The position numbers and the translations under genes were made by a program. A model generated the notes under the pieces. The model was not told where the DNA came from. It was given only the letters and a program-made list of their open reading frames with translations, and did no database searches. From Amphiscolops sp. MND2022 (taxonomy: Eukaryota), in assembly GCA_964187785.1 (NCBI GenBank), contig OZ076409.1, positions 9,302,001-9,366,000 of the forward strand: a stretch of DNA of 64,000 bases. The letters run 5' to 3'. Positions 4,343 through 56,366 of this stretch are shown here, piece after piece; position 1 is the first letter of the stretch, and the number at the start of each line of letters is the position of its first letter.

Positions 4343-5640
4343 GAAGATCTGTACAGGATTAAAACCTTAAAATGTTCCTGTAACTTGTTATTTCAACTTT
4401 GGGTCAATCAATTCAGTTGAATCGTATCAGGTTACTGCAAAATTATGATTATTCTCTGTCAGTCCGACGTGGGTATATATAACCAAGTGGGCATGACACG
4501 GAAGATTGTTATCGTCATGATGTCAAAAAAGATTAAATCTAAATATAGCTACTTCCCAAAATTCTGAAAATAAAACATAAAGTCACTTTGACTAACAGGG
4601 AGGCACGAATAAAGGTTATCGTGCTGAGCACAGTTGGTGGGGGGGGGGTGACGTGTGGCCTATTATGGCCTTTAAAACAAAGCAAATGAACAGGATCAAT
4701 TTTTTATGTCAGTATTTCACGCGTGATGAGACCAACTTGGCTTACGGCCTTGCTGGGCTTTTTGTTTTGTAGCAAAGGGGACAGTCTAAAATGACTGTAA
4801 TGGTTATATTTTGAAATATGCTCGGTCAGAAAATTAGTAAAAGTAGGGCTTTATTTTCACACAACTTTTTAAATTCACATTTTCATTGACTAACATCGCA
4901 CTAATGATTGATTAAGAAATAGGACCGACAAAGCCGCATAGCCTTGTCCGTCAATTTTCATTGAATATTAGCACTGCACTATAATTCAAAGCAACGGTGT
5001 TTAAATGAAAGGTCCTGATTGGCTAGTCCGTCCAGGACGGCTATGCTAGCTATACTGAGCAGGCAAACATTTGAACTCGTTTCCTTTCTGCCTGTCAGTA
5101 TAGCTTGCTGTCAAATATTAAACACAAAAAAACCATGATATTTACCTGTATTAAGAACAGTATAAATACCATACATAAGTGTTTCAAAATAGTATTAGCA
5201 GTTTTGAAAGTTTTTCTGTAATGTGTTCCCAGTAGGGCGTGTTGCCGGCTCGGGTCATATGTGTAGAAATTGTCATCGCAGGCGGCAGCCTGCGACAACA
5301 ATCGTGATTCAGCTTCAATTTGAACAGAGCGTTCAACGAAGGTTTGACTGTTTGTTGAAAAACTATGAATATTTGCGGAAGCCCTAGCTTGGATGGATTG
5401 CCGTGAACAGCTTTATTGGACACATTAGACTGCAATTTTTCAACACATTTCTTCTTCAAATATCAAATACGTTCTATGCTGTTGAGATTAGATAATCAAA
5501 TGAGCGTTTCCTGAAACAAAAGAAATTCATTTTTAAATCTGTTTTCCTGATCTTTGTCGGAGGTTTCAGGAATATAACAGCTACCAATTCTTCAAACAGC
5601 TGAAAAAACATGAAAAATAACTGAAGAATTTCTATTGTGC

Positions 5641-7131
5641 TGTGATAATCCTCTTGTGTGCGGTCCTCATTTATGACCACAGAGTCATTTAGATCGATGT
5701 TTTGTATACTCAAAGGTTGTATTGGCGTTCTAAGTTCATTCATGTTAGATGGCCTGAAAGGATTATCCTTTATTTCACATTCTTGATTTTCTGGGTCAGA
5801 TGCGTTTTCTTCACCGTCCTCATTACTTGTTTATTTCGCGATTCCTGCTCTAGGGGTGTTTCATTCTCGGCATCGTCTGTTTGGTACAGACTGTGTTTTC
5901 CTGTTATTTTTCATTTCTTTCAATATTTTCTCTAACTTCTCATCCATTTCTTTTCTTATGTTTGCTACTTCTTTGTTCGTTTTATCTAATATTCTTCGGG
6001 TCAAGCTTTGCACTTCATTTTCATTCTGTGTTCCACTGTCTAGAGCTATTTCTTCGTCCCTAACTGAACTGACATTTTCAAAGTTACTTGAAGTTTCGAT
6101 AAGAGTTTCATTACCTTGTGATGTTTCTATTTCGGATGTGCTCAACTCTCTCTCAAGCGAGGGTGACTGTCCTCGTCTAGATCTTCTATTCCTCTTGTTA
6201 CCCATTTTAATCAGGTTGAAATGCTGTTTTGGAGAGAAAAATTTCAATTCGAATGGTGAGCAAAGTAAAATTAGGTTGAAATAAAGTTGAAAAAAATGCG
6301 CATAATGTTAAGTTATCAAAGTTGAAACAAAGGTTGTGAGGATTAAAAGAAAGTTCTGATCAGTCTGAAAGTTTTCTGTTGAATGAATAATATTGGGTTT
6401 CTTACTCTCCTTTTTGATTTGAGCTAAATTTAGCAGCATGACAACCAATTTTTGGAATGCCATGGTTACATCACGATTATGTAATCACTAAAATTAGTAC
6501 CCAATTTAATATAAAAATAGGTTTGTAAGTTACATCACTTCTATAAATAGATTCCTGCATGACGAATATTTTCCTGCATTTTGATTGGTCATCACACTAA
6601 CTGTACCAATCCGTTCATCATTAAAGAGAAAACTGTGGCAACACGTAGTATGACTCATATGTAATGCAAGTATCAATTTCAACATAGTGTAGCATGTATG
6701 ATTAAGTCAACGTAATGAGTCATGCACTTGAAAGATAGAGTTGAAAAATGTGATATTGTACTGCATTATGCTGCAAACGTAGTGCGGCAGATTATTTCAA
6801 ATATTAAAGTCCTTATGCATTAATGCATCGTACAAATCATGTATAATTTATTCATTTCACTACAAATTGTGTTAAGCAGTATTATACATCAAATATGTTA
6901 ACACCTTTCAACATTTGGTGAATTGTTCATGAATAGATATTACTTTACAAGTACAGTTAACTAGAATAGCAAACAAATTCAAACGATGCTGGTGTACAAA
7001 GGTCATATATGAATTCATACAAAACAAGGTTCAAGAAGTAAGGAGTTTTCTTCAGTTTGAAATAGTACATGGGCGAGTCATTTGCCTCTATCGCTGCTCT
7101 ACGGGTCCAACACAAGCTCTAGGCTGTGACA
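5641..7131 (-). repeat. 3' LTR of element A (contains a copy of the gag 5' end, ATG at 6205)
   Basis: Highly similar to 20887-22358; bounded by the TSD. Confidence 0.95.
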
Positions 7132-8150
7132 GGCCAGCATTTTTAAAGCAAATGAGTGCAGCCTCGAACCCATCTAGCCCATGACCTGATGTTCCGGTCT
7201 CGCACTGTTTCACCTGGGTATTCAGTCGTAGCTGTATAGGCCATCAGAGCATCAAGGGCAACTTCGTCGTAAGTCCTGCCGCACCAGTGACAATTCCCCT
7301 GAACATGAGGCATAACAGGAGGGTTAAGTTGCCTTCGTAAGGGGTTCCTCTGTTGTTGTGCGTTGTTGTCACTCCGAGCAGGACCCACACCAGCCGTCTC
7401 TATATTGCTATGAGTGCCTTGGGTGTCCAGGTACGACTTACCATTGGCGTTATAATAATATGCAACATTGACAGGCCCACTTGGGTGCAATATTTCTGTG
7501 CTTGGGTTGTATTGGGGTTGTGTCATGTTTTGAGCAGCCAAGTTTGGAAAATGGAGTTGAGCGACGGGCATACCGAACTGGCTTACCGTAGGTGTTTGCA
7601 GTATTCCTCCCCCGTTATATGGGCGAGTGTAGTCCGGTTGGGAAATCTCATGTGGAATTACCACGGGGGTATTTGGTATGGGTCTGATCGGCCCATTTCC
7701 TTGGGCGACAGTTGAAGCGATATTGCTGTCAGTATTAGGCCGCATAGATATTTGGCTTGCTGGTCTTTCAGCTCTTACAGGCAGAACAGCCAACACAGGT
7801 CTACCATAATTGTTTCTAGGGACATTTGCGAAGTTGGCATTTGAAAGCAATTCTTCACTATTGCTTCCACTCGATTCGAAGAATGAAATCGGTGAAATGT
7901 TAGGCAATTCAGTATCTTCTGAGATCATGCTCAGTATCTCCCTCTCGATATCAGTACCTGTGATATCAATCACAGATCCTTCTCTCGACTCAGGTTCGCT
8001 TACGGCGAACAATCTTGCAGCATCCCCATTTACGATTGCGGTCATGGGGTCATTAACTGGTCCCCCGATTCTGAATCTCAGGTCTATGAGTTCTGAGTTG
8101 GGTTGTTCCATGAGAAACTCCTCCCCAGAATTGCTCGAAATATTTATCAA
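7088..8150 (-). CDS. ORF X of element A: orphan protein, disordered N-terminus, conserved CxxC-containing C-terminal domain, one late frameshift, ends inside the 3' LTR
   Basis: 335-aa ORF 7143-8150; homologous to 53888-54679 (FANV.RN.YGRP; NPPVMP.V.G.CxxC; EYP.ET.RDRN.RS). The shifted frame gives CFKNAGLSQPRACVGPVEQR-stop at 7088. Confidence 0.8.
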
Positions 8151-8399
8151 CCCGGGAGAATTTGTAAAACAGAACGCATATCTTCGTCGATTGTGAAGAC
8201 GTGAGAGTTTTTTGGATATCTATTGTCCATTTGAGCTTGAAATTAGCAACTGATTCCTTTCGTGAAAATTCGTAGAATAAAAAGTTTTCACTCCTTTCCA
8301 GTTTGCGAGTGTTTTCCCGGGTTTTAGGGGTGTTGTAAACAATTCTCGGTGTCATCTTTCTTCTAGTTTGTAGTTCCCCGGCAATTCCGTAAGGCGCGT

Positions 8400-9310
8400 A
8401 GGGTTATATTCTTACTTCCTCGTTCAAATAGCTCCATAACAAAATGTACTTCATCTTATGATTTCCATTTATGGAGGACAAAGGCATCAACATTTTCATT
8501 TAGGATGATAAGAGACGACAAACGATTGTAAACAAATATATATGAAGACTTACATGACAAATTTTAACAACTCAATTTTGTATTATGAATTTTGCAAATT
8601 TCTATGAAATTTCACATGCAGTTTTGAGTCAAGCAATTGAGAATATTTAGCAGTGAACAATTCATGAAAGTAAAGTTTCCGTGTGAATGCGCGTTTTAAA
8701 TGGTATAGGATTTCTCAAAAGATCAAGTACATATTCCTCCATCTTCTATTTCTGTCCCATATTGTTTATTTTAGCATCATGACGTCAACTGAATGATACA
8801 CTGTTATCTTCATAACAGTAAAACGATGCATGGGGTCATGAGATGTTGTTTCCTTTTAGGTCAACACCAGTTCAAATTGTACTGCAAGATGCATTTCACT
8901 TTGCGCTTTTCTTCGAACTGCCACTAGGGGGCGGCGCATCATGCGTATGTAAATGAATTCATTTATGCTGTATCGAGTACCAATCTCGCTGGCAGGTTTG
9001 ATCGGTTTCCAAAAATTTCAGCCAATCAGCGCGCAGCATTTGCGCAAATATGTTAATGTAATTTGTTCAGCCGAAAGCCACGCAGCACCTTTTGCTTGTT
9101 TATCGTGTCTGTTTTGGTCAGTTTCCTAGTCATTTCGTCAACTCTCTCTTTCTTTTCAAACTTTTAAATTCCCAGTTTTGCTCATTTTTCTATTTTTAAT
9201 TAGTTTCAAGTTCAGTTATTTCTTCCGATTTTGATACCATAGTCAGACAAACTATTTAATTCTTCATCGTTTTAACATTCATTTGTTTCCAACAATTTTC
9301 TTATCCTGGA
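8400..9310. promoter_or_regulatory. Putative internal divergent promoter region between ORF X and the antisense gene
   Basis: Non-coding gap between two head-to-head ORFs; contains TGACGTCA (~8780), CCACTAGGGGGCGGC (8921-8935) and AGCCAATCAG (~9020). Confidence 0.45.
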
Positions 9311-9311
9311 G

Positions 9312-12300
9312 ATGGTACGCTCTCGAAGTTCTTCCTGGCGGCGGAAAGCATCACCCTCAGTAAGAAGTCATCAGAATCAGCTGATTGCAGGACATTCAAC
9401 ACTGCTACAACATGCGGTAAGCTTGAATTTTGGTTGATTTTTCTGATTGAACTCAGACAGTATTTTCTTTTCTTTGTGACGTCACCGATTTTTGAAAATG
9501 CGAGTGGGCCAGACTCACATTTATTGTTGACTATCTTTCGATTTGTCAATTTCCGGTTTCCAAGTTTTAAGCGGAAATACTAATTGTTTTTTGTTTCAGA
9601 TTCTTCCCCAGCTAAACCGAAACGCAGTGCTGTTAATCCTTCCAAAGCCAATAAAGCTCCAGTAACTCAGCGATCCTTGCTGTTGCGTAGGTGGTCTCGA
9701 AAGCCACAAATAAGCGAAAGTGGTGTCCCGCCGCAGTTAATTCCGCAATTCCTCATAGAAGACAATCTCAATGAGTTTGTTGATCCAGTGGAAAGCGACA
9801 AAGCTGCAGAACTAGCGGAAACTGGAGGTGCGAGTGATTGGGCTCATCGAGAAGTAAACTCTCTTATTAATGCACCAGTGGGGGGCCTCTTACCCAGTAC
9901 TTCTTTTACCACCATTCCCTGTTCACCACGTTTAGATCAAGTTCACACTACAACTCAAAACTCTCCTTTACCAGCTTCCATTGGTAAAAGCGTCTCTCCT
10001 TTTACGAAATTTTTGACTAATTCTCCAGTTCAGGGAGATAATTCAGTCACATCTCCTGTTTCGAAGAACAGGAACACCGGGGCCTTGGAATCGCCACCCA
10101 TCACTGCCACCAGTCCCGGAGACGTCGGAGAAACGAGGCTCGAGCGCATATTGGCGGAAGCTGCAGAGGAAGCGGGCAATAAGGTCTCTTCTCGAGTAAC
10201 CAATCGCGAGGAACACAGTGGTTTATCTAGCCCGGACGGAATGGAGTCTTCACAAGCGACCAGCAAAGCGCTGAAAACCAAGGCTGCCATACAAGGGACT
10301 AAGCCAAGTGGTGAACCCAATGGTAACTCCTCTGGTTCAGACTCTAGCTTTAACTCTGAATCTTCATCTGGTCTCTCTTCGGCTGAAGAAATGGAATCGC
10401 CAGACCCCAAAACTTCGAAATGCAAGAAACAGCCCACTACCACAATGACTACATACAAAAGAGCTAAACCACGATATGTGCTAGCAGGATGGAAGTATCA
10501 TAAACATCCTATCTTGAAATTCTTTGCGACTGCACCCGCCGACGCTGCCAGATATCCACACAAATACAGGTGTCGGGTTTGCCAAGTGGAACTGTCTCTG
10601 ATGACAAAAAGTCCAATAGAGATATTACATCATTATCGCACAGATGCCCACCTCATCAAGGAGCACAGGATAAGAATGGAGACACCAGGGCTTCCCCTGT
10701 TTGATAGAGACTGTAAAGAACTCAGCGGGATGGCCCAAAAGTTGCCCCGAAACTCGGAGATTACTATTTACGGATAGGTCAGCAAGATCAAACTGAGGCC
10801 ATTAACACAGATGATCCCAGTAAAGAGATATTGTCCCTGTTGAACTTGCTCAAGATGGGGCTCATGCGGGGGGGTCAGCTCGAAACAATGATTGCACTTT
10901 GGCATGATCTGGTTAGGGAGACGAAAACGACCGAGCCTATTGTACAACACGACTGGCGGCCTCATCGAGTCCTTGTAATTATTTGTCTGCTGTAAAACTT
11001 AAGAGTTGTTTAAGGTCCATCTTTCATTGTTCGTCAGACATCTCCTTCTTTTCAGGGACTTCTAACCTACATGTTTCGGGAGCTGTTATCATTCTGCATA
11101 ACGTCCATCGAGAGATCCGGGAGCTACTCCCTCAGGATTACAGAGTGTGGCGGAGTGACCCGGCTTTTTGTACACTTTTGAGCAGACAATTCGATGTATG
11201 GGCTTTGTATCGGAGTGTTTCCAGGGCGATTATGCCCCCTGGCTATCTTCTCTCCCTATTGAGTGGTTTCTTCGCGCTAGTTGAGAAAGATGTCCACCTG
11301 CTGTTCCTCACAGGCTTCGATCCCAGGATCACTTGGACTGTGTCACGGGCGTTACCACAGCGTAGAAGAATATGTTCAACCCCTAAATTCGACGCGGAAG
11401 ATCTGGAACGCACGATGTTAGACCCTTCGGTGCAGATTCTCGATCGGTTTGACTTCAGAAGTCTTCTAGACTTCCTTCTAATGCAGCTTCGATCTGCTTG
11501 TGACAGCTCATGGATGTCATCTTTTCCAGATTTTCAACATGTTGGTACCTCCTCATTACATTTACACAATTCTTTTGTTTTCCTCAGTTTTTTAAGGTGC
11601 TCTGAAGATATTTTGATCCAATTTTCCTGTTGTTAGGCCGCCTTTCCGGGTTTCATAAGTCTTCCCTGATAGGAGCCAAATTTTGCGAATTCTGGGGGAT
11701 TTCGAGATTATAGTGGATTTTTCTTTCAACAGAGACCTTGTATGTTGTTTTGCAGCATTTTTAATCTTTTTCGGATCTCGGATAGATATTAATTTCTTTC
11801 TATGCTGTTGAAGGTTTGCGGCACAATGCAGCATAATTAGGTCATTCGTTCTATTTTTTATCAACATTTTGACTCATTACGTAATATGATTAGTCACGAG
11901 TTACTATTCTAGTGTTTCCAAATTTTTGAACGTGCATAACTAGTAATCACATTGACTTCTTCCAGTTCCTTTTCTTCATCTTTTTTTAATGCACGTGATC
12001 TTTAAACTCTGTTTCTTCATTGATTCACTTGGTTTGTTGTACTTTAGACTGTCACTGCTCTGGATAACGATATTCCTCGTGCTGTTGAAATAATGGACCA
12101 TTTGATTACGAACTGGGACAAAGTGCTACAACATTTGAAGTGCAGCAGGAGAATTCCAATGTACCGGTCCCATATGCAGGAGGTTTGTATTCTATACTTT
12201 ATTTTATTTATCTTTCAATCTGTTCCGCGCTGTTTCTGTTCATAAACTGTACAGGTACCTTTAGGGAACAATCTCTCAATCTCATTTGTTTCAGCCTTCT

Positions 12301-13669
12301 GGAATGGACGACTTGTTATTGCGAGATAAAGTTTTTGTTGCTCGCCTGTTTGTTACAAGAAACATCCTTAGCCAATGTAAGTAATCTTCCAATATCCTCT
12401 TCAGTTTCTCTCTGTTTCCCGACTGTTGTTTAGTTCTTTTCTGTTTTTTTGATTGTTGTTTCTTCTTCCTTCGTACTGTCTTCATACTTCCACTATGGCT
12501 TTGTGAGGGTCAATACTGTTTTCTTGTTCTAGACAACTCGACATTCAGTGAGGTCTTCAGTTGAACATCAGGCGGATTTCGACTCTACAATCATTATTGT
12601 GTCTTCGTGTACACTCAGTTGCAAAAGATCTTACCTGATTCCTTTCTCGGGGCAATATCTGATTGGAACAAGTATATGAGCCTCAACATGGACGACGTTA
12701 CCCTGCCCTTTAAGACTGTCGATGACATGCTCCAAGATCACGATCTTTCTGATTTGCTTTCTAAAAGCAAAATGTCTACTCCCCGGCGATTTGTACGCCA
12801 AGTAATTGCGTTCTACAAGCACTTTTTCAAATTGTTGTTGATAAATGACGTGGCCACATCTGCTTTCGTGCGGGGACTCTCCGCATTTGATGAACCAGTG
12901 GTTCGTAGCGGACGAGAAGCAGATTACACTGATGCTAACCAGAGCCTTGCAGGTTATTTTGTTCAGCAGAAATGGATGGCCCCACATACGAAACCCGTCG
13001 TAGTGAGTGAATATTGTTCGCTCGTTACCAAACTGCGTAGTGAGAATTTCCCTACAGTTAAAGACTGGGTTGGGACTTTTTCTTGTCACTATGAAATCCA
13101 ATGCCGGATTGAATTGTTTCACTTTTTTCAAGACTATTGCCAAGCTTTACGAGGACCTTGCCCCGTTCGTTTGCCTTTTAGAGTGACGATCCCCGGGTTG
13201 AAGTCCAGCCTTTCTTCAATTTTCTTCCTGTGTCAGTAGTCTTCAGTGCTCTTTGGCATTGTTCCAGAAATGTGAGAGCCTATTTATGGATTCTGCTGCA
13301 TTGCCACGAGCTTTTGAATTGGTTAAGCGAGGCCCTTCATTAATCCTCAAGAGGAACTTCTCTGTTTGGAATATCTTGTCCTCGACTCATTTCCTTAAAA
13401 CTGGGTTACTGTCTTCACTCAATGGGTATTACGCCAAAAAGGAACGGATCAACGACAGGTCTTGGATTGTGGCGGATGAAACAGCAAATTTGTCCCCTGT
13501 ACGTAGTTCGAGTGCTGAGGGTACTCCTGTGAAACGTGTTCCAGGATCACCTGATTCAACCCCTTCAAACAATCCGGTCGCCCGACGATTGACCGAAGTG
13601 CCAGTTATTTCTGAAGTTCCAGTGAAAGTCATCTCGAGGAAAAAAGGAATGCTAGTGTTCTTTAGTTGA
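9312..13669 (+). pseudogene. Antisense, multi-exon cargo gene of element A (Ser/Pro-rich region, C2H2/BED-like zinc finger, helical body possibly hAT-transposase derived); a few stops and frameshifts
   Basis: ORFs 9584-10777 (YRCRVC...HHYRTDAH), 10983-11540, 12607-13239, 13253-13669. Exons 12048-12182, 12295-12376 and 12533 onward join in frame at GT-AG sites. Homologous to 62659-64000. Confidence 0.8.
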
Positions 13670-16600
13670 AGACTCTTCTCCAAAGTTACCGGCATGGACG
13701 GTTGATCAATTTGATTTGTAATTCTTTTGTACCTTGTTGTATTTATTTGTTTTTCATTTCCACAAGGGAAAAAGAAAGAAAGATTTAGAGAGTTGAATTT
13801 TGTTGATTTTTGTTTTTAATATCTGTATGAATCTGAGAAGTTGGGATTTGAGTTGGGTCGTAAATTGTATTTTTCACCACGTGTATTGGTAGGGGTTTTT
13901 CCTTTTTGAACCTCATCGTTTTCTTGATTTCCATCTGTATTTTCTGGGGATTTTTCTGCATCAAGAGTAGGGTTAGGTTGTAAGTCTTGTTGATTATCAT
14001 TTATATCGAATTCATTTTCTGCATTTTCAGTTGGGTTTCTATATTACGAACGGTAGTTTGTTCTACTGGGGCTCCCCCTCTGTTTTTTGAAATTTCGAGG
14101 GAGGGTGGGTGGTTTATCGGTACATATTCTTGTATGTCATCTTGTTCGTTATCTGGGAGTTTTGTGTCAAATCGGTCTGTACCAAAGTTTGTATCCCATG
14201 TATGGGCATACAGATCATCGTGTAACTATTATGTTGTCATCTTTTTGCCAATCTGTTTCTCTGACAAAATTATTGGCTATTGGTGCGCTAGGTGTACATT
14301 TCCTCAAACGTATTCGGTGTAACAGTTGTGTTTTGTTTGTCCCTAGCCTTCGTACAATGTAATTATTGTTAGGTAGGACTTTTTCGACTTTGTAGGGACC
14401 TATCCAACGGAATTCTCGGAACGGAATTTTTGTTGCTTGTGTGTCTGCCTTTGGGTTCAGTATGTAGCAATAGTCTGTTGTAGTAAGAGGTGCTGCTTTT
14501 GCCTTGCGGTCATAGTATGTTTTATACTTTAAGTATGACTGCATGATATTCTTTTTGGTTTGGTCATTGAGTATCTCCATTCTGCGTTGTATTTCTTCTG
14601 CAATGTCAGACTGTGCAGTATACCGTGGGTTAGGGTTATAGCCTAGCTTGTAGTCTAGGATGTTATGTGGTATCCTGCCGTGGAAAACACGGGTGGGTTC
14701 ACATCCTAAGCTGGCATGATACGTTGTGTTGTGGTTTAAGACAGCCAGTGGTAGGAATTTGTGCCAAATATTGCGAAATTCACCTGTTGCTGCTTTCAAA
14801 TGTGTTTTTACTGTAGCATGAGTGCGTTCTAGCATGCCGATTGTTTGTCCATGTTTTGTCGAAGCATGTTTTAGTTCATTTCCAAGCACTGCTGCTACTT
14901 CGCGGGTGATCTGTGAGTTGAATTGAGTGCCCATGTCAGTTATTATGGTCGTTGGTAAATATGTGTGTTTACACAAAATGTCCATAGTGACTCTTGCGAC
15001 TGTAGGGGGCTGTGATTCGGGTTGTTGGATAAGCAAATAAATATCTTGAGAAGACATCAATTGCTGTTATGGTGTTATCAAACCCTCCACTTGGTGGTAG
15101 ATTAGGTAGGATGTCCATCTGAAGAATATCTTCTGGACCGATTTCCCATTCTGGACAATTTAAAAGTTCTGTTTTTAGTAAATCGTTATTGATGCTTTTG
15201 TTTTGAATGCACATTTGGCAGTTTTGTACACAATTTTTGATGTGCTTTGCCAAGCATGGGTAGTAATATTTCTGTCGTGCTTCCTGTATCATTTTTGTTA
15301 TTCCTGGGTGATTTGCTTTGTGTCCGTGTAATGCTTGTAGGAACTCCTCGACAAGCTGTTTTTGTAAGAGTAGTTGGTAGCGTGAAATTTGTCCGATATC
15401 ATTGTAGTATTTTCGTACAAGAATGTCTCGGCGGATTTCGATGCGGGGTATATTTTGTAGATAATGTTGGTAGCGGTTGTCTTGTGTGGACGCTGACTCA
15501 TCAAAAAGCTCACCCTCTCTTTTTGCTCTGAGATTACGAAGGACTGGGTCATTATTTTGTTCGAGTCGGATTTTTGCGTTGTCTCGGAAATGTCCTTTCG
15601 ATAATCTATTGTTCCGGCAGTTGTTTTATGGAAATTTGTAATTCAGTTATTTCATTTTCCGGTTCGTTGTGTGTTTCTGTTTGTGCTTGATTTCTAATAT
15701 TGTCTTTTTGTTCCCAGAGTGTTTTTTCATCGTTATCATCATCTGGGTGGATGTAAATTTGTTCTTCTTCAGCTATGCCAGAGGATTGTATATTAACCTC
15801 GATAGCTTTTGTTTGTAGGTCGTTACGTAAATTCATTTCTAGTTTTTCTGTCGGGTTGATTTCCGTTCGCGACAAGAAGTCTGCAGCCGTATTCATTGCT
15901 CCTGTCACATGTGCTATGACGAAATTGTACTGCAGGACGTAGTCGCATGCGTTCCATAGTGCTGGGGGAATGATTCGTGTTTGGAAAAATCTGGTGACTG
16001 CTCGGTTGTCGATAAAGACAATTACAGGAAAAGTACTACCCCACATTAGGTGTCCAAATTCTGAGAATGCAAAGAAAATGGCTAAAAACTCTTTCGCATA
16101 TATTGACATTTTTAGTTGGGTTGAGTTGAAAGTTTTTGAGCCGAATGCGATTGGGGCGTATGTTTTGCGTTTGGATTGTAATTTTTGTTGAGGGTCGTCT
16201 TCAATCATAATCGCATATCCTGCAGCTGTAAAACTGGCATCTGACATGACGATTAGTTGTTTGTCTTTAAGTGGTTGTTTGAGTGCCATTTGGCAAGATT
16301 GAAGGAGGAGGGTGTTTAACTGTTCAAAATTGCTTGTAAATTCAGTAGCAATGTAGAATTTGTTGGTTTCCTTCAGTAGTTTGAAGAAAGGGGTGAGTCG
16401 TTCCGAAAAGCGTGGTATACAATTTTGTAATAATTCAGAAAACCAATAAACCTTTAAAGGCCTTTTTTGGATTTGGAGAGTTTAAGTTTCGCTAAGAAAT
16501 CTTTGACTTTGTCTACTTGGGGAGAAACTCCTTCAGGTGTGATCGTTCTTCCCAGGAAGTCGACCTGTTTGACTCCAAAATGGCATTTTGACATTGACAA

Positions 16601-18765
16601 TTTCATTCCTGCGTTCCGTATACATTCAAAGACTGCTCGGATGTTTATACACAGCTGTGTCACTGTGTTTGCTGCAAGTCCGATGTCATCGACGTATTGG
16701 GCGCATTGGTCTGCTTTGATGAGGGTGTCTAAGTATTCCCTTATGAAACCGGAGAATGCTGAAAGTGATCGGCTAGGGCCTTGTGCTATCCGCCGATACG
16801 CAAAGGTTCGGCTAGCAAAGTTAAAGGCCAACATCTGAATTGATTGGTAATCTGCCATCTGAAGGCAGTGGTACGCTTGTGAACAGTCAAGTTTACAAAA
16901 AAAATTTCTTTCCTGCCATATGTTGGGCTGCATCGGAAAGTGTACCGACTGGGTGGTTGTTATTTACGTAGTCTTCGGAGATGAGATTCTTCATCTTGCG
17001 CAAGTCGACTAAGAGTCGCAAACGACCATTAGATTTTCGTTTCGCATATTTAGACTTGCGTATTTAGAGAAAGGTAGAGTTGTTATTATACCATACTTGT
17101 GAAGTAGGGCAAGTTCTACCGTGATGTCATCTTTTAGGTTGATCGGAGTTGGAAGACTTCGACTGTATGCTGGTCGATCATCATTTGGTGTGAGTTTGAC
17201 TTTGAATTTTTTTTTTGTTCCGATGTCAAACCTGTGTCTGGCAAAAATTTATGAAATTCAACCGGCAGTTCTTCCACTTTTTGTCGTTCGAAAAGAGTGA
17301 GTGTTGTGTCACTCCAATCAAAAGTGTCTAGAAACGTTTTGCGTGATTTTTTGTCGTCTTGTGGGTTGAGTTTTTCTAGTGTTTGAAGTTCCACTAGTTC
17401 ATCAAACATTCGTTTCTGAATGGGTGTATATGTTGTGGGGTCTCCAGGTTGTTCCGGTGTTGGGAACCAGTATTGTTCCGTTTTGTCTTCTTTGTCGTTT
17501 ACTTTTAAAAGTTCATTGAGGTATACGTCCGTAACTTCAGTATGTTGGTGCATGATGAATGTTAGCATTGAGGGGTTGATTGGTTTAATATGTTGCAACT
17601 GTTCTGGGGTTAAAACTCGAAAGTCGGCTAGGTGTTTGTCTGTTGTGATTGTATATGGTAGTTCTGAGAAAGTACATATTTGGTATCCGACTGCGTAATT
17701 GTTGACTGTGCAGAGGGAAGATACAAGGAAAAGTGTGTCATGATCCTCAAGGTGCGTAGATGGCGTTACTATGCCTGTTGCATCATGATCAATTAAATGT
17801 GGCATTCTGCTCGCAATGAGCATCGTTTCACCCGGTTGCAGTGTGTATGTTGCTTCTGCAAGTAGTGGTGTTCATTGTCGTGTTGGAAGATTGTGTTCTG
17901 GTTTCAATTGCATTGATAAATGTGGAAAAGTTATTATTCCTTGTCGGATGTCAAAAATGGCATTGTTCCTTTTTAGGAAACAAAGTCCATTTAGGGGGTT
18001 GGGGAAAGACTTTCATGACAATCATGAAGAACATAAAATCTGCCACTTCAAATGTTAGGCAGACTGTTCCGATTGGCGTTTCCAATTGTCCGTTTGCTAC
18101 CATTATTTGAAAATTGGGTGCAGGACCTGTGTCTGTTATTGCTTCTGGTGCAAGAAGTTTGATTTTATTTAGGTCTTGTTCCGATATTGCGCTCGTGAGA
18201 GCTCCGGTATCGATTAGACCGTCAAGTGTAAGCTTTTCGAAATCCATCGGAAAGTAATATATATGGGGTTTACTTTTAATGTCAGGTTGGTTGATAGAAG
18301 AAGCATTGGTATATCTGTTTCTTTATTAATCGTAAGATGATTTGGAATTTCGTCATCTATGAGGGGTAATTTTGGTATTGATGCAGATTCGGTTGGTGTT
18401 ACATATGAGTCTTGTGTTTGGAGAGGTTCAAAATTGTTTTTCGGAAGAGGTTCTGGTAAATTTTGTGGTGAGGTTTCGGGTTCAGATTCAAACAGATTTT
18501 CTGTTTTTTTCGTTACTTATGTCAAGGTGTGTGGTTATGTATCTGTCAGGGGCGTCTCTGTATATTTCATACAGGTCGTCCTCTGATTCATTTTGTTGAG
18601 TTCCTGGAGTCTGAGAGTCGGTCTGTTGTGTGAAAGTGTTTGTTTTTATTGGGTGAGGAGTTGGATGCTGCCAGTCATCTTTCTCCTCTGGTTTTGTAGG
18701 GCGTGGCTTTATTAGTTTAAATCCTTCGATGATGAAGGTTGTTGTCTGGGTGCTTTCGGGTTAAA

Positions 18766-20460
18766 ATGTTGTTGGAGTTTTTGTAATTTTCAATGTGTTT
18801 TTTCTGTGCTTCGGTTAGTGTCCACATCGGGGGGCGATTTTCCATATTTGCTCCGAAGTAGCATGTTGGTTCCTCATGTCCTGGTGCGTTACAATGCGCA
18901 CAGCGTATGACATCAGGGTCTTCTTCCAGCTTACGACGTTTTGCTAGTTTAGCGCAGTCTGCTGCCTTGTGCCCTGTGTTTTTCCAATAACGACATTGGT
19001 CATCTTGCAATGTATTGTTGGGCACCGTTTTTGGTGTTTATTGCTTCTTTTTTGTTGTTGCAGTTTTCTGCTGAGGTGGTTTGTCTTCTGCTTGTTTGTT
19101 TAATACCGTCATTTGCGTTTTAACGCCAGTGATTCGAGTCCATTTAATTCCATCTCACGTTCGAGATGTCGGACTATTTGCTCGTATGTTCCATTTTCAA
19201 GATAGGCTTGATTAATAGAACGTTTCAAGTGTGGTGGCATTTTTGCATAAAATAGATTTTCTATCATTTGTGATGCAATGTCACCGAAGGCTTTTTCGGT
19301 GCTTTCTTGTAGTTCTTCTAAGAAGTGTGGTAGTTTCTGGCGTTCCGGGTCAAAAACCAAGCGATGAAATCTATGTTTTGCGGGTTGTGGGTTGAGTTTT
19401 TCTAGTGTTTGAAGTTCCACTAGTTCATCAAACATTCGTTTCTGAATGGGTGTATATGTTGTGGGGTCTCCAGGTTGTTCCGGTGTTGGGAACCAGTATT
19501 GTTCCGTTTTGTCTTCTTTGTCGTTTACTTTTAAAAGTTCATTGAGGTATACGTCCGTAACTTCAGTATGTTGGTGCATGATGAATGTTAGCATTGAGGG
19601 GTTGATTGGTTTAATATGTTGCAACTGTTCTGGGGTTAAAACTCGAAAGTCGGCTAGGTGTTTGTCTGTTGTGATTGTATATGGTAGTTCTGAGAAAGTA
19701 CATATTTGGTATCCGACTGCGTAATTGTTGACTGTGCAGAGGGAAGATACAAGGAAAAGTGTGTCATGATCCTCAAGGTGCGTAGATGGCGTTACTATGC
19801 CTGTTGCATCATGATCAATTAAATGTGGCATTCTGCTCGCAATGTTTGTTGGAGTTTTTGTAATTTTCAATGTGTTTTTTCTGTGCTTCGGTTAGTGTCC
19901 ACATCGGGGGGCGATTTTCCATATTTGCTCCGAAGTAGCATGTTGGTTCCTCATGTCCTGGTGCGTTACAATGCGCACAGCGTATGACATCAGGGTCTTC
20001 TTCCAGCTTACGACGTTTTGCTAGTTTAGCGCAGTCTGCTGCCTTGTGCCCTGTGTTTTTCCAATAACGACATTGGTCATCTTGCAATGTATTGTTGGGC
20101 ACCGTTTTTGGTGTTTATTGCTTCTTTTTTGTTGTTGCAGTTTTCTGCTGAGGTGGTTTGTCTTCTGCTTGTTTGTTTATTACCGTCATTTGCGTTTTAA
20201 CGCCAGTGATTCGAGTCCATTTAATTCCATCTCACGTTCGAGATGTCGGACTATTTGCTCGTATGTTCCATTTTCAAGATAGGCTTGATTAATAGAACGT
20301 TTCAAGTGTGGTGGCATTTTTGCATAAAATAGATTTTCTATCATTTGTGATGCAATGTCACCGAAGGCTTTTTCGGTGCTTTCTTGTAATTCTTCTAAGA
20401 AGTGTGGTAGTTTCTGGCGTTCCGGGTCAAAAACCAAGCGATGAAATCTATGTTTTGCGG
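18766..20460 (-). repeat. Internal complex duplication in element A
   Basis: ~19385-19843 repeats ~17359-17817 and ~19844-20460 repeats ~18766-19383; near-identical translations in the ORF track. Confidence 0.9.
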
Positions 20461-20886: not shown

Positions 20887-22358
20887 TGTGATAATCCTCT
20901 TGTGTGCGGTCCTCATTTATGACCACAGAGTCATTTAGTGTCATCTGTTTTGGTAGTGACCACAGAGTCATCATGTTTTGTATACTCAAAGGTTGTATTG
21001 GCGTTCTAAGTTCATTCATGTTAGATGGCCTGAAAGGATTATCCTGTATTTCACATTCTTGATTTTCTGGCTCAGATGCGTTTTCTTCACCGTCCTCATT
21101 ACTTGTGTATTTCAAGGTTCCTGCTCTAGGGGTGTTTTGTTCTCGGCATCGTCTGTTTGGTACGGACTGTGTTCTCCTGTTATTTTTCATCTCTTTCAAT
21201 ATTTTCTCTAACTTCTCATCCATTTCTTTTCTTAAGTTTGCTTCTTTTTTGTTCGTTTTATCTAATATTCTTTGGGTCCAGATTTGCATTTCATTTTCAT
21301 TCTGTGTTCCACTGTCTAGAGCTGTTTCTTCGTCCCTAACTGAACTGGCATTTTCAAAGTTACTTAAAGTTTCGATAAGTTTCATTACCTTGTGATTTTT
21401 CTATTTCGGATGTGCTCAACTCTCTCTCAAGCGAGGGTGACTGTCCTCGTCTAGATCTTCTATTCCTCTTGTTACCCGTTTTAATCAGGTTAAAATGCTG
21501 TTTTGGAGAGAAGAATTTCAATTAGAATGATGAGCAATGTAAAATTAGGTTGAAATAAAGTTGAAGAAAATGCGCATAATGTTAAGTTATCAAAGTTGAA
21601 ACAAAAGTTGTGAGGATGAAAAGAAAGGTCTGATCAGTCTGAAAGTTTTCTGTATAATGAATAATATTGGGTTTCTTACTCTCCTTTTTGATTTGAGCTA
21701 AATTATAAAAATCACTAAACATAGTACCCAATTTAATATAAAAATAGGTTTGTAAGTTACATCACTTCTATAAATAGATTCCTGCATGACGAATATTTTC
21801 CTGTATTTTGATTGGTCATCACACTAACTGTACCAATCCGTTCATCGTTAATGAGAAAAATGTGACAACACATAGTATGACTCATATGTAATGCAAGTAT
21901 CAATTTCAACATAGTGTAGCATGTATGATTAAGTCAACGTAATGAGTCATGCACTTAAAAGATAGAGTTGAAAAATGTGATATTGAACTGCATTGTGCTG
22001 CAAACGTAGTGCGGCAGATTGATTCAAATATTAAAGTCCTTATGCATTAATGCATCGTACAAATCATGTATAATTTATTCATTTCACTACAAATTGTGTT
22101 AAGCAGTATTATACATCAAATATGTTAACACCTTTCAACATTTGGTGAATTGTTCATGAATGGATATTACTTTACAAGTACAGTTAACTAGAATAGCAAA
22201 CAAATTCAAACAATGCTGGTGTACAAAAGTCATATATGAATTCATACAAAACAAGGTTCAAGAAGTAAGGAGTTTTCTTCAGTTTGAAATAGTAGATGGG
22301 CGAGTCATTTGCCTCTATCGCTGCTCTACGGGTCCAACACAAACTCTAGGCTGTGACA
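20887..22358 (-). repeat. 5' LTR of element A
   Basis: Direct repeat of 5641-7131; carries a short local duplication near 20940 and a ~50-bp deletion near 21703 relative to the 3' LTR. Confidence 0.95.
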
Positions 22359-36733: not shown

Positions 36734-36739
36734 GTGTAC

Positions 36740-40897: not shown

Positions 40898-42096
40898 TGT
40901 AATAATCCTCTTTTGAAGCTATTATTCCGTCTTCTAAGTTCAGTTCGTTTTGGTACAATGATTTGGCTGGATGTTTCAAGTCTTTCATTTTTGAAACTCT
41001 GAGAGGATTATCGTCGTTTTCTGATTCTGGATTTTTGTTTTTAGATGCGCGAACTCCTTTAGACCTCTCATGTTTGGATCCCGAAGGTCTTTTGCAATAT
41101 TACTTGTCTCCTGTTTCTTCTTTTCCCATCTTTGCTCAACAGAAAATATGTTCTGGCTTTTTGGGGGAAGAATTTGAATTGTCTTGAAGTATTCCGAATA
41201 CCAAAAGATATTCCAAAGAAACGGTGCAAATGTTGAAAGGAACTGCTTTTACAGTTTAGTTAGAGTGATGATTACAGCAATTGATCACGATGAGGGTCAA
41301 AATTGGAATGAATATTTATGCTAAAGTTATTTTACTTCAGAAAATTGGGAGCATGACACTTCGTTTTAGAGGAATCACGCTAGCCTGGGAAGCAAAAATA
41401 GAATAGCATCATCATTACGTCAGGGTATTTATATCGCATTCAAAACTGATGAATAGGTCCAATAAAACCTTGGAAAACTTCATTAGAGACTGTCAAGCGC
41501 GTACTCGGAAATATAATTGAAATGTATAACGTCACAGCACATTTTGAATAGTTATCATGCTAAAAACGCATACTGACGCATACTCGTCTGTACTCAATCC
41601 GCATACTGCCGCATACTCTTCATCTGTAATCCGCATACTGCCGCATACTTTTCATCTGTAATCCGCATACTGCCGCATACTCGTCTTTACTCGATCCGCA
41701 TACTGCCGTATAGTCGTCACACCTCGATCCGCATAGTAACGTATAGTCGTCACATCTCAATCCGCACAGTGACGTATAGTTTGTTCAAGTTCCACATATT
41801 AGCATAAATTTAGCTCTCACAAACTGTGACCAAGAATTATGAGTCAGATCAGTATCTAGTGATGAATGAAATTTACGCTTCTAATACTTCAAATGTATAA
41901 CAATGTAAAACAGAACTCAGTTTGAAATAAGAACGACGAATATGAAATTACATGACTAAGGTATGATGTTAGGGGGATTAGTTTATAGTTCTTGTTGAAC
42001 AAGTAAAGTTGATAATCTGCTAAAAAGCGGGTTTCGCAGTTTCTAGTTTCCTTACAAATTGCCCCATGGCTCCAACACAACAGTGGGGTTGTGACA
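40898..42096 (-). repeat. 3' LTR of element C
   Basis: Starts TGTCACA and ends TTACA on the minus strand; shows the empty site of the BEL insertion near 41547-41551. Confidence 0.9.
41566..41780. repeat. 32-33-bp minisatellite (CCGCATACTGCCGCATACT core), 7 units, inside the LTR
   Basis: Units counted directly. Confidence 0.9.
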
Positions 42097-44071
42097 GTCC
42101 CGTACTTTCAAAGGAAAATAGAGCTGCAACAAACCCGTCGACCGAGGATCTGAACCTTCCATTCATGTCCCAGACTGTCTCCCCGTCGTAGGTAGTTGGG
42201 ATGGGACGTTTGCCACAGTGCTTCTATTCTTTTACAAGGGTCCCGCACTTGAAAAGTGCGTTATTAGTTCGATTCCTTTTGATTCTTTATTGCAGTATAG
42301 TATTGAAGTAAATTATTATTATTATGTGGAAACTTTTCAATTCTGAGGAAATCCAGCTGAGCTTGAAAGTCAAGAAGAAATTTATCGTCGTGGGGTTACA
42401 AATCACCAACGAAGACATCACTTGCGGAGTTCGGATGGGTTTCGTTTGGGTCATTTCCAATTTTGACAATTTTCTGTCATAAATTTTCCATTTGCCCGGT
42501 TTATTGAAGTGTTTGGTTTTTTGACTAGTCATTGATTTTAATGCTAAGCTGGCCAGGCTAGCATTGGAGATGTCCTCATTTGTTACAGACGACATCCTGG
42601 TTTCTTTTGGAGTATTTTCATACTCCCGAATTTAATTTGAAGCATTTTTCAACGCTTCGGGATTCTTGTGGAAGCACCTTCCAATACTTGCGGTATGAAG
42701 TAATTTCAGGCCTCCGAATTTCGATTGTCATTTCTGTTTTTGCACAAGAAATGAACTAACTTTGTTTCAGTTGAACTCGGTTGAGGTATCGTCAGGACGT
42801 TCACCCACTAGATTTTTTGCTCTTTTCACAAGCTGTATTAAAAAGTCCACATTTTTTTGAGTCCGACATATTGTTTCATCTAATCCGTCAAAACGAGGCA
42901 AGGAAAGTCAGAGAAGTTGAATTTGTGTCAGAGTTGTTTTTCAAGTTGTAGAAGTTTGAGAAAGTTGGGTTGGAATTAGGGCGTAAATCCTATTTGTGAC
43001 GTGTTTTTATGAGTTCTTGTTGGGATGGTTAAATTTGTGGATTTCTGTGTTTTTTGTGTTTGCTTATTTGTTGTTTTTTGGGTTTCTTTTTGGGTTTCTG
43101 AAGTAACTAAATCATTATCATGTGTTTGTTGGGTAATTTAATCGACATATTTTGTGTTCGGTTCAATAGGTTGATCCACTGGGCTCCCCACTACTGTTTT
43201 TTGAAATGATGAGGGTGGGAGGGTGGTTGTTTTTGCGTGAAACAGTAGTGGATACGAGTTCTTTTTTTCCAGTTTTTCCCTTGCTATAGCAATTTGATTG
43301 ACTGGATCGAGTGGTCTTGTTGTCGAATTTGACAAATTTTGGTCTACGTGGGATCCTATTGTGTCGTTTGGGTTTCGGGAACTTTGTCTATGGAGTTGTC
43401 GGTTGGCTCCTGTCACCATGTAATAATCCTCTTTTGAAGCTATTATTCCGTCTTCTAAGTTCAGTTCGTTTTGGTACAATGATTTGGCTGGATGTTTCAA
43501 GTCTTTCATTTTTGAAATTCTGAGAGGATTATCGTCGTTTTCTGATTCTGGATTTTTGTTTTTAGATGCGCGAACTCCTATAGACCTCTCATGTTTGGAT
43601 CCCGAAGGTCTTTTGCAATATTACTTGTCTCCTGTTTCTTCTTTTCCCATCTTTGCTCAACAGAAAATATGTTCTGGCTTTTTGGGGGAAGAATTTGAAT
43701 TGTCTTGAAGTATTCCAAATACCAAAAGATATTCCAAAGAAACGGTGCAAATGTTGAAAGGAACTGCTTTTACAGTTTAGTTAGAGTGATGATTATAGCA
43801 ATTGATCACGATGAGGGTCAAAATTGGAATGAATATTTATGCTAAAGTTATTTTACTTCAGAAAATTGGGAGCAGGACACTTCGTTTTAGAGGAATCACG
43901 CTAGCCTGGGAAGCAAAAATAGAATAGTACATCATTACGTCAGGGTATTTATATCGCATTCAAAACTGATGAATAGATCCAATAAAACCTTGGAAAACTT
44001 CATTAGAGACTGTCAAGCGCGTACTCGGAATTATAATTGAAATGTATAACGTCACAGCACATTTTGAACAG

Positions 44072-52533: not shown

Positions 52534-52687
52534 ACAATGTTCTGTTTCTTCCACTTCCTTCATTTATGCTTCACGTATCAATATGTATGAAAAAATTAAT
52601 TTTCATGTAAAAACATGTTTCACAAAACATTTTTAAAAAAATTCTTTTTTTGCACTATAAAACGTTCATCTTTTTGGGCCCGGAGGA

Positions 52688-53002: not shown

Positions 53003-53021
53003 AACAGTTATCATGCTAAAA

Positions 53022-53331: not shown

Positions 53332-53759
53332 AATTTGTTCAAGTTCCACATATTAGCATAAATTTAGCTCTCACAAATTGTGAACAAGAATTATGAGTCA
53401 GATCAGTATCTAGTGATGAATGAAATTTACGCTTCTAATACTTCACATGTATACCAATGTAAAACAGAACTCAGTTTGAAATAAAAACAACAAATATGAA
53501 ATTACATGACTAAGTTATGATGTTAGGGGGATTGGTTTATAGTCCTTGTTGAACAAGTAAAGTTGATAATCTGCTAAAAACCGGGTTTGACAGTTTCTAG
53601 TTTCCTTACAAATTGCCCCATGGCTCCAACACAACAGTGGGGTTGTGACAGTCCCGTACTTTTTCAAAGGAAAATAGAGCTGCAACAAGCCCGTCGACCG
53701 AGGATCTGAACCTTCCATTCATGTCCCAGACTGCCTCCCTGTCCTCCCCCGGAGAACGA

Positions 53760-54679
53760 ATGCAGTCAGACGCGGCCCTAGATCTGATAAACATATCTAG
53801 CAGTTCAGACGAAGGATTTGTAGTGTAACCTTTGACTTTGACTGAAATGAAAGATAGGTTCAGAGTCGCTCTTCATCAATTGCGAGCATGCCCGTTGCCT
53901 TCATAGGATCTACGGAAGCTTCGTTGTTCGTGACCAACTCAATGGAAACAGAATCACGAGGATGCATAGATACAAGGGGGATAACTATTGAGTCCGAACT
54001 GATGGACTTGTTGAACGATATACCTGACATTTCCCCAGTGACATTCATCGATAGCTCAGAAGAAGAGATGGACCCATTTCCAGAAGCTAACTTTGCGAAT
54101 GTGCAAAGAAATGCATATGGACGTCCCACACAAAGAGTATATCCTATCCCTAGACCCCAAGTTACAAACCCGGGACAACGACCAGAAGCAACACGTGACA
54201 TCAATCCTCCGACGATACCTAGTCAGGTGAGTGCTTTCACAGCATATATTGCCCCGCAACAAAGGACAGCTGACTTTAATGCACGACCAGTTCAACAAGC
54301 CGCATACCTGCCGATGCCTGTGCCATTCTACCCCAATGGGTGGAACAACCAAGGTTGTGGGCCGGTTAACAACAATGCACACTCAATCCCATCAAACAAC
54401 GCCTTTCCCCAGAATGGACCAATACTCCAGATGAACCCACCCGTTATGCCCGAAGTTGCGGGATACTGCTCCAGTTGCATGAAAACAAACGATCACATTG
54501 CAGTTGAAACCTTGACTAGCTACATTGCCTGGTCAGAATACCCTGAAGAAACTATTCGAGATCGGAATATGAGGTCGAGAGCTTTTGTGGACGGGTTTGG
54601 AGCAGCCCTGATCTGTTTTAAAAATGCTGGACTGTCGCCCGGTTACCCTTGCGAGATGTCCGGGGTGCAGCACCGGTAA
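53760..54679 (+). CDS. ORF X homologue lying upstream of the D LTR (N-terminus disrupted)
   Basis: LINISSSSDEGF near 53780 matches INISSNSGEEF of A; 263-aa ORF 53888-54679 shares the C-terminal domain. Confidence 0.8.
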
Positions 54680-56366
54680 GCAGATCAGTACTGCATCATC
54701 CTTCACAATGCCCGAAGACCCAATGCCAGCCTTATGAACTTTGAAAAACATTCAAACTAAACCATAAACTGAGACATTTGTTCTCAAATAACTGTTCTCG
54801 TTGCTATTTCTTATGTTTGTTTAAGTTAAACCGTTAGTTGATGTTGGTTTTTGTGGACTTACGTCCTGTTTGATTTACATGTGACAACGGCCTAACCGTT
54901 GAAAAAAGACAAAGAAAAAGACAAAAGCTCAATAAACTAGTCATTAGTGACGATGTTACTAATCTGACCAGATCCAAATCTCTGTTTTGCTCCACAGTTA
55001 TATTGTAGGAAATTGTGGTATACATGACAGTAATTTCAATATTTTAGTCAAGTTACATCATGGTTATGCAAGAAGTGTGTGAAATCAGTATGATGTTTTA
55101 TCTTGAATGCAGCATGACAAAATATCCCTCCAAAATAGTACTAAATTATGCTGCTTTATACGGTTTGTAATGATCGGCATATTCGGTATTTTTAGTAAAA
55201 CAGCATAATATGGATATATATACTGTCGCTTATGCTTTATACCGTATTATACTGGAAATGCTCAAAAACAGCATGATGATTTAACTCAAAAACGGCATAT
55301 GAAGGAAACTCTGGAAAACAGCATGATGTTCACACTCGAGAACAGCATAATGACCGCCAGCACCACGGCACTGTTCAATCGTACTGTATTATGCGGTTTT
55401 CATGAAACTGCATATGCAGAATTATATCGGAAAACAGCATAAATTGCATAATATTACACATTAATCCGCCGCTACATTGATGCTTTATGTAGACCTTCTT
55501 GGGACATGATTTCATGATTTATTTTTAACTTCTGACCCTAGAAACATGACGTAATGACGATTTTTGTAAAAATGCTGGTCATGCTACTAAAAATATTACC
55601 CAATGAAATCATTTTGTAGATACTTTTGAAATCAGTGTTTCCATTATCATTCGACAAGATAAGATGCAGAAATCAGTCACTCTAAATCAGAGAACTGCTT
55701 TCCATCAATTCCAAACTTTGCAGTTTCTTTCATTGTAAAGATAACTCCAAATTTTCATTTCTACAATATCTTTGAATATCAAAGATTTCCCTCAACTTGA
55801 AGTAGTTTTCAACATGGGAAATAGAAGGAACAGACGTACAAGGAGAAATGAGTCTCAGTCTCCAGAGAGAGATGAGAATATGTCAGAAACAAGCCTTCTA
55901 CAAGGTAATGCGACTTTAACTAATGTTTCTGAAATTGTTAATAACGTTTTTGACAGGAACTTAGGTAGCGAACTAACGGAACCATCACAAATCAGTAATG
56001 AGATAGAAATAATTTCTCAAAGGCTGTCTGAACAAAACAGTAACAAGATGACACAGATAGAACACCAGTTGAATAACAAATTTGAAGAAATACTTAAAGA
56101 AATCAGAGCAAACAAAAACTGTAACACAATAACTGATGAGGAGGACGTTGAGAGTAGACAGGCAGGTCCTTCAAATGCAAAACCCAAGGGTCTCAGGAAC
56201 AAACACGCATCGAACATGACAATAGAAAGAGATCAGGATGATCGGTTTTACTCGTCTGAAATGAGTGAATTAAGGCAACCATATACTCCGATTGGAATTA
56301 CAGATGAGACTTTAGATGAGACCATAATAATAAACGAAAACAGACAGGAAAATGCCGATCATCACA
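54633..56366 (+). repeat. Inferred ~1.7-kb LTR of element D
   Basis: Start placed by analogy to A (AAAAATGCTGGAC then TGTCGCC); ends TCACA before the PBS TGGTGACAGG at 56367. Partner LTR is not in the window. Confidence 0.7.

Follow-up and report, generated by a model that had tools for sequence, protein, structure and literature searches.

In a stretch of 64,000 nucleotides from Amphiscolops sp. MND2022 (contig OZ076409.1; hereafter the window, with positions counted from its first letter), which is a nest of eukaryotic retrotransposons, the open reading frame (ORF) called ORF X is a real gene under purifying selection and encodes a non-envelope accessory protein of a Ty3/gypsy long terminal repeat (LTR) retrotransposon family. 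ORF X was followed in three elements, designated A, C and D. Its protein combines an acidic N-terminal arm, which carries a motif of the phosphorylation-dependent SUMO-interacting motif (phospho-SIM) type, with a small Cys/Arg domain at the C-terminus, and it is tentatively read here as a nuclear regulator.

The ORF X copies of A (minus strand) and D (plus strand) are homologous over N-terminal blocks and the C-terminal domain (tblastn E 6e-31), and the shared domain that had been noted in the original prediction, made from the letters of the stretch, was recovered in both as the block NPPVMP..CxxC..EYPxETxRDRNxRS..DGF..CFKNAGLS. The same prediction had placed ORF X at 7088-8150 in A and at 53760-54679 in D. 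Homologous ORFs are indeed present at these places, but both are interrupted and the one of D has also lost its 5' end (Table 1). The start now given to the copy of A agrees with the N-terminus of intact relatives such as P0127, position 8150 being the beginning of the SIM-type motif, and the ORF X of D is 93% identical to intact P0001. A fragment announced at about 42097-42260 in C does exist, its position being corrected to 42223-42059, and shows 62% identity to P0359 (E 5e-15). The claim that ORF X terminates inside the LTR was also borne out: the LTR-initial TGTC lies within Leu-Ser codons in A (7131), D (54633) and C (42096), and the last 14-15 ORF X codons are inside the LTR. Every ORF X copy within the window is broken. 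The breaks in A and D, a fourth fragment, the SIM-type motif with its acidic arm and the shared-LTR layout of C and D go beyond the first reading. Between 53613 and 53760, a head-to-head junction near 53745 joins two subfamilies, C-type on the minus strand and D-type on the plus strand, both cut within ORF X. The stretch RPIPTT in C does not mark the join of an internal deletion; it corresponds to domain sequence read in a shifted frame.

The divergence of ORF X across copies was found to be non-neutral, in agreement with the conserved gene proposed at the outset. When A was compared with D, the 49 domain codons before the break of A gave proportions of nonsynonymous (pN) and synonymous (pS) differences of 0.29 and 0.67, corresponding to a ratio of nonsynonymous to synonymous substitution rates (dN/dS) of about 0.22, and the 14 codons immediately before the LTR showed 1 nonsynonymous versus 9 synonymous changes. 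Different codons are used for 24 of the 39 residues that are identical in both copies. Values of pN 0.27 and pS 0.77 were obtained for C versus D over 31 codons, and the N-terminal part of A and D behaved as follows: pN 0.35 and pS 0.83 for the SIM block (27 codons), pN 0.47 and pS 0.67 for the next block (84 codons). As controls, pN was 0.10 for integrase, 0.18 for reverse transcriptase/RNase H and 0.41 for the antisense gene adjoining ORF X; the control for gag after the primer-binding site (PBS) could be aligned over 35 codons only.

Furthermore, a profile search gave 255 cluster representatives at E<=0.001, fused or longer forms being covered through the best 150 of these matches, and clusters built at 90% hold up to 71 members. 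Searches for relatives returned 53 of 293, 45 of 2365 and 30 of 5064 candidates. Taken together, the selection tests and the 255 relatives indicate that the conservation of ORF X is more than chance. Of 377 proteins, 105 were taken as full-length (at least 280 aa, domain motif beyond residue 190) and grouped in 17 clusters at 60%. ORF X proteins have 284-383 aa and one folded domain of about 75 residues, and many intact relatives are of constant length. The domain of the distant members P0230, P0297, P0307, P0311 and P0371 is 32-57% identical to that of the main groups (hhalign probability 98.9), and in distant subfamilies the G[LV]Sx motif is kept (144 of 178 domain-bearing proteins). Contigs of 0.5-2.3 kb suggest that two distant groups come from other assemblies. 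All the clusters looked up (17/17) were ENA-only and unnamed, and no related DNA locus was detected in metagenome contigs, viral contigs or prokaryote genomes. The ORF was not described in the literature searched, in which subscription papers were thinly covered, and an entry in a repeat library could exist.

The C-terminal 88 residues were folded by structure prediction. The predicted fold, of about 75 residues, consists of a CxxC knuckle and a two-helix hairpin (helices 26-41 and 48-72), with predicted local distance difference test (pLDDT) values of 76.6 and 75.2 for the models and of 84-93 in the core. Three cysteines (C19 in 78/80, C22 in 76/80 and C80 in 67/74 sequences) and three arginines (R51 in 77/80, R54 in 72/80 and R56 in 73/80) are conserved, as are Y37, E46, T47, G61 and F69; C80 is encoded inside the LTR. 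The gene had been described as an orphan, and this view stands, since no Pfam family reached the cut-off in either of the 2 window copies, in 40 members of the alignment or in 10 diverse members, and neither profile nor fold searches gave a relative. The PDB sequence profiles returned 0 matches at E<=10, the best Foldseek hits had an E of 3.2 in PDB and of 0.72 in BFVD, where Nef (E 2.1) and Rev (E 3.2) appeared at chance level, and the best VIA-align superpositions (Z 5.5, rmsd 3.3, 55 aligned residues; Z 5.7, rmsd 2.9, 52 aligned residues; rmsd, root-mean-square deviation) were with generic helical hairpins. The fold searches show neither a relative nor a new fold. In the ESM Atlas neither the domain nor the antisense protein had a usable match, a result that speaks neither for novelty nor for absence. 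Prediction of a homodimer with zinc, run without alignment, scored 0.26 versus a mark of 0.32. Weak matches to Cytochrom_C1 (10/40, best E 0.0037) and DUF1289 (6/40), probably due to the CxxC, were rejected.

In the first 120 residues, 17-24 Asp/Glu were counted versus 3-13 Lys/Arg, a composition which suggests that the N-terminal arm is disordered, and a variable linker rich in Pro, Gln and Asn lies between this arm and the C-terminal domain. The arm bears, around residues 13-30 (52 in a single extended gene model), the phospho-SIM-type motif, of which VVDISSESGEE, LINISSSSEE, VVNISSDEE and VVDISSDDD are examples. All counted cases contain the core [VIL][VIL]x[VIL] followed by S, T, D or E at 4 or more of the next 6 positions. 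The motif agrees with the published SIM consensus, [VIL][VIL]x[VIL] with an acidic/Ser flank (PMC9371903), and is similar to the CK2-regulated motif of PML, VVVISSSEDSD (PMC10705990). The motif was present in 14 of the 17 subfamily representatives versus 1.2-8.1% of the shuffles of each first 120 residues, and in 78 of the 105 full-length proteins; by our own reading, 19 of the 27 proteins without it begin downstream of the site. The distant P0311 (VVDISSDDD) and P0371 (VVNISSDEE) retain the motif within N-termini that elsewhere show weak alignment or none; in comparisons of the N-terminal part of P0311 with six N-termini of the main groups, all matches stayed at E 0.37 or worse. Binding of SUMO by ORF X, a property common to several of the models considered below, is regarded as rather probable. 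In one subfamily (P0166-P0171, P0356 and P0360), the residues Y-S-P-[IL]-S-P stand just ahead of the SIM-type motif and form a possible proline-directed phosphorylation site; they bear a loose likeness to the C-terminal domain repeat of RNA polymerase II. The lack of a transmembrane segment, on which the exclusion of an envelope had been founded, was confirmed by a maximum 19-residue Kyte-Doolittle mean of 0.71-1.42 in 17/17 representatives, and, as regards a signal peptide, the N-termini are acidic and polar as judged by hydropathy.

With its acidic arm, its phospho-SIM-type motif and its small Cys/Arg domain, the soluble ORF X protein resembles a nuclear regulator. We therefore favour, tentatively and at somewhat less than even odds, a model in which ORF X acts in trans in the nucleus as an activator or anti-silencer, is expressed from an internal promoter that also serves the antisense gene, and engages SUMO-dependent silencing. 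ORF X would be transcribed from a promoter at about 8930-9050, common to the antisense gene, and would obtain its poly(A) from the LTR. The SIM-type motif would bind SUMO-modified silencing proteins or chromatin factors, and CK2-type phosphorylation of the serines behind the hydrophobic core could strengthen SUMO binding. The C-terminal domain, in which Cys19, Cys22 and Cys80 may bind zinc and Arg51, Arg54 and Arg56 nucleic acid, would anchor the protein on the DNA or RNA of the element. The net effect would be activation or relief of silencing, so that the element stays expressed. In Drosophila, SUMO is required for transposon silencing guided by PIWI-interacting RNA (piRNA) (10.1101/533091).

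As originally stated, ORF X lies behind an antisense gene and far downstream of pol, about 5.5 kb from its end. From their starts, 8230 for ORF X and, as a candidate, 9312 for the antisense gene, the two genes diverge across about 1.1 kb, in which a cluster of promoter-like motifs was found at 8929-9047: a GC box at 8929 (1 of 4 in the window), an octamer-like site at 8947, CCAAT boxes at 8980 and 9022 and a palindrome at 9040-9047. Of the two routes of expression proposed at the outset, a promoter of its own or a splice, this cluster and the head-to-head layout favour an internal promoter, which in its simplest reading would be bidirectional. Possible minus-strand splice donors are located at 8553 and 8415. 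The antisense gene (9312-13615 plus; 62659-64000 minus) is also under purifying selection (pN 0.41, pS 0.74 over 210 codons), and its match to zf-C2H2_DHX34 (E 0.0085) is below the cut-off. Internal promoters for 3' genes have been described in Oikopleura Tor elements (PMC4402516) and in foamy viruses (PMC12282171).

Several observations weigh against the nuclear-regulator model. The domain is not net basic (Lys/Arg roughly equal to or below Asp/Glu), which weakens simple nucleic-acid binding, and its three conserved cysteines alone do not complete a zinc site. The SIM pattern was defined after the alignment had been viewed, the 17 clusters are related and SIMs are short and degenerate, so that the retention of the motif in P0311 and P0371 is the best evidence for it. 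Three of the 17 representatives do not have the strict pattern, substitutions occur in 8 of the 86 proteins covering the site, and one clear SIM is present, the two further hydrophobic/acidic motifs not fitting the core. No classical basic nuclear localization signal could be recognized by eye in ORF X. SUMO binding alone fits activation, self-repression or another outcome. With 172 sites in the window, CCAAT is a frequent word, and only copy A retains the promoter region. Finally, the 14 codons inside the LTR have no overall selection signal (pN 0.52, pS 0.45), and the codon tests involve three window copies, with synonymous sites near saturation and local alignments biased to conserved blocks.

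Among the other explanations, ORF X might be an RNA export or processing factor like Rev or CERV of Cer1, whose Cys/Arg domain would bind genomic RNA while the N-terminal arm would recruit export or splicing factors. Genomic RNA export by CERV requires invariant cysteines and an arginine (PMC10309623), and the ORF X domain also has conserved Cys and an Arg cluster. The predicted hairpin of ORF X, with arginines at the start of helix 2, is reminiscent of Rev. We nevertheless consider this function unlikely: the domain has only 3-4 Arg amid acidic residues, no clear leucine-rich export signal is visible by eye, CERV is unlike ORF X (517 aa, a segment shared with Gag, H, M and G domains), the intron-like stretch is on the antisense strand, and the conserved SIM-type motif is left unexplained. 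An adaptor or decoy for host proteins, like Vif, Vpr or ICP0, would make use of that motif, the SIM capturing a SUMOylated restriction factor and the C-terminal domain recruiting a ubiquitin ligase or sequestering the target with no nucleic-acid binding. ICP0 prefers SUMOylated PML (PMC4276917), and the small helical domain, neutral in charge and conserved at aromatic and hydrophobic positions, is compatible with such a role. This function is likewise unlikely, as no BC-box or other ligase motif was recognized by eye and the acidic amphipathic segments probably resemble an activation region more. Three conserved Cys with no conserved His do not make a RING, which in SUMO-targeted ubiquitin ligases of the RNF4/ICP0 type comprises eight zinc ligands.

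A role as particle or integration cofactor is improbable. Here ORF X would accompany the cDNA and, through its SIM, tie integration to chromatin rich in SUMO, or would chaperone particle assembly. ORF X has been maintained by selection in an element family strongly nested in repeat-rich DNA, and a SIM could act as a chromatin tether; but ORF X is coded apart from gag-pol, 5.5 kb downstream and behind the antisense gene, with no evident packaging route. That ORF X makes no functional protein, its conservation reflecting cis-acting DNA beside the LTR (plus-strand primer, attachment site), is very improbable. The coincidence of the Leu-Ser codons with the TGTC of the LTR, the absence of an evident purine-rich tract just upstream of it and the broken state of all window copies would fit this explanation, but cis-only conservation is largely refuted by the codon tests: synonymous changes outnumber nonsynonymous ones 9 to 1 in exactly the 14 codons before the LTR, identical residues are mostly spelled differently (24/39), intact relatives of constant length are numerous, and selection reaches N-terminal blocks about 1 kb away. 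A degenerate envelope or small fusogen, suggested by the sense orientation between pol and the 3' LTR in A, is hardly credible for a protein with an acidic, polar N-terminus and no segment above 1.42 mean hydropathy in any representative.

The nuclear-regulator model may be extended to the antisense gene, although we regard this extension as speculative and rather unlikely. ORF X and the antisense gene would form a two-part anti-silencing cassette under one bidirectional internal promoter, in which the antisense protein would mark the element and the phospho-SIM of ORF X would intercept SUMO-dependent piRNA/SetDB1 silencing there. If so, the cassette would be an animal retrotransposon counter-defence directed at SUMO.

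The host element of ORF X is a Ty3/gypsy LTR retrotransposon family. This assignment is based on D, in which protease, reverse transcriptase, RNase H and integrase follow each other in Ty3/gypsy order at 57910-61851 (Pfam matches), and on A, which has TG...CA LTRs, a PBS-like site and a 5-bp target-site duplication (GCACA at both flanks). In A, pol ends near 13785 and is followed by the antisense gene, by ORF X in the gag-pol sense and by the 3' LTR. The LTR at 54633 is both a 3' LTR and a 5' LTR, since the ORF X of D sits upstream of the gag (55814) and PBS (56367) of D; the start of this LTR was deduced by homology with A and C, the other LTR of D being outside the window. The order ORF X - LTR - PBS - gag is found in two of the three elements (C and D), and we infer that these arrangements are tandems with a shared LTR, tandem insertion being a known phenomenon (PMC5932611). 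In C, the 5' LTR starts with TGTC at 53650, is split by a BEL/Pao insertion at about 44072-53002 and ends at 43419 ahead of a PBS.

Table 1. Positions of ORF X, its domain and motif, and the surrounding features in the window.
Feature	Position	Strand	Remarks
ORF X of A	7088..8230	minus	broken: frame changes near 8170 and 7177; stop codon 7090-7088 within 3' LTR
ORF X ahead of element D	53760..54679	plus	broken: in-frame stop ~53826, frame change near 53870, 5' end cut ~53745
ORF X remnant of internally deleted element C	42059..42223	minus	reads into 3' LTR (TGTC at 42096); P0166/P0359-type subfamily
Second ORF X remnant, before 5' LTR of C	53613..53743	minus	TGTC at 53650
Phospho-SIM-type motif of A (LINISSNSGEE)	8118..8150	minus	
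Phospho-SIM-type motif of D (LINISSSSDEG)	53784..53816	plus	
Conserved C-terminal domain of A	7088..7328	minus	CxxC, two predicted helices, third conserved Cys inside LTR
Conserved C-terminal domain of D	54431..54679	plus	stretch folded 54413-54676
Antisense accessory gene of A	9312..13615	plus	divergent from ORF X (head to head); intron-like stretch with GT-AG borders, 9417-9599; CxxC..H..H finger
Candidate internal, possibly bidirectional promoter	8929..9047		consensus matches only
Element A	LTRs 22358-20887 and 7131-5641	minus	LTRs 91% identical, TGTCAC...ATCACA ends
5' LTR of A	20887..22358	minus	then PBS-like TGGTGACAGGA at 20886
3' LTR of A	5641..7131	minus	carries last 14 ORF X codons at its start and gag N-terminal frame from 6205
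LTR common to upstream ORF X and element D	54633..56366	plus	gag frame opens inside at 55814; PBS-like site 56367

The LTR is laid out with first bases that code for the end of one gene and last bases, about 550, that code for the start of gag. The gag frame begins about 550-565 bases inside the LTR (6205-5641 minus; 55814-56366 plus) and continues through the LTR end and the PBS (20886, 56367; H-M-V-T-G), the part inside the LTR giving pN 0.41-0.47 versus pS 0.64-0.71. Directly before the LTR (7131-7150, 54615-54632 and 42097-42115), no canonical purine-rich tract was seen; the site is protein-coding and its synonymous change is saturated. An Rfam scan of 5600-14000 gave 0 matches. The gag-pol region of A contains internal duplications at 17346-20460 (620 and 473 bases, 99% identical), which may be a recent rearrangement or an assembly artefact. 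The BEL/Pao element lying within the 5' LTR of C has 315-bp LTRs that are 95.6% identical, and the LTRs of C carry short tandem repeats with a spacing of about 97 bases at 41567-41778 and 53003-53332. A further gypsy-type element lies within 28000-40000, with a Retrotrans_gag match at 37597-38616 and a very strong GC skew of up to 0.62.

LTR retrotransposons commonly carry additional genes at the 3' side, most of them unexplained; such genes are already known in plants and rotifers, and the ORF X protein family is unnamed. The plant gypsy elements Grande, RIRE2 and Retand, with TRP28 and env-like ORFs, have a long region between pol and the 3' LTR with conserved extra genes that are probably regulatory (PMC7264820, PMC11963269), and an antisense gene is present here too. 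In these plant elements, the sense ORFs resemble env and in part have membrane segments, and the candidates for a regulatory role lie in antisense orientation (PMC7264820, PMC11963269), whereas ORF X is sense, soluble, overlaps the LTR, carries a SIM-type motif and has no Pfam match, the TRP28 domain not being among the Pfam matches listed for it. Rotifer ORF3s are a precedent for non-envelope third ORFs in animals, but they are esterases or exonucleases (PMC5408684). CERV of the C. elegans element Cer1 is likewise a non-envelope regulatory protein, and its novel domain has conserved Cys and Arg; it has, however, an N-terminal segment common to Gag, contains H, M and G domains and acts in genomic RNA export (PMC10309623), whereas ORF X stands apart as a 3' gene of its own and has a single small domain. 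The Oikopleura Tor env gene, driven by the internal promoter Penv, encodes a membrane glycoprotein, unlike ORF X (PMC4402516). VANC is a precedent for anti-silencing encoded by transposons, but comes from plant DNA transposons (PMC10398659). In the phospho-SIMs of PML and DAXX, a hydrophobic core is followed by serines and acidic residues as in ORF X, a likeness at the motif level only (PMC9371903, PMC10705990). No retrotransposon accessory protein with a conserved SIM was described in the literature searched. SUMO is a known hub of animal transposon silencing; if ORF X binds it, the protein would offer a direct and inexpensive way to ask if retrotransposons of animals oppose SUMO-dependent silencing, and would add an unnamed domain.

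Foamy viruses, whose bel region overlaps U3, differ from the host of ORF X, which is a Ty3/gypsy element without env. No sequence relationship was found, Tas not being among the matches listed in the Pfam, PDB and BFVD searches, and ORF X is not counted as a Tas member. In Tas, the DNA-binding domain (80-210) precedes the activation domain (250-290) (PMC12282171), whereas ORF X begins with the acidic arm and ends with the folded domain. Nevertheless, the Tas/Bet unit is, like ORF X, an accessory gene of about 300 aa on the 3' side of an LTR element, and Tas is a nuclear transactivator expressed from an internal promoter (PMC12282171), a layout and a role which ORF X would share, with a SUMO handle added.

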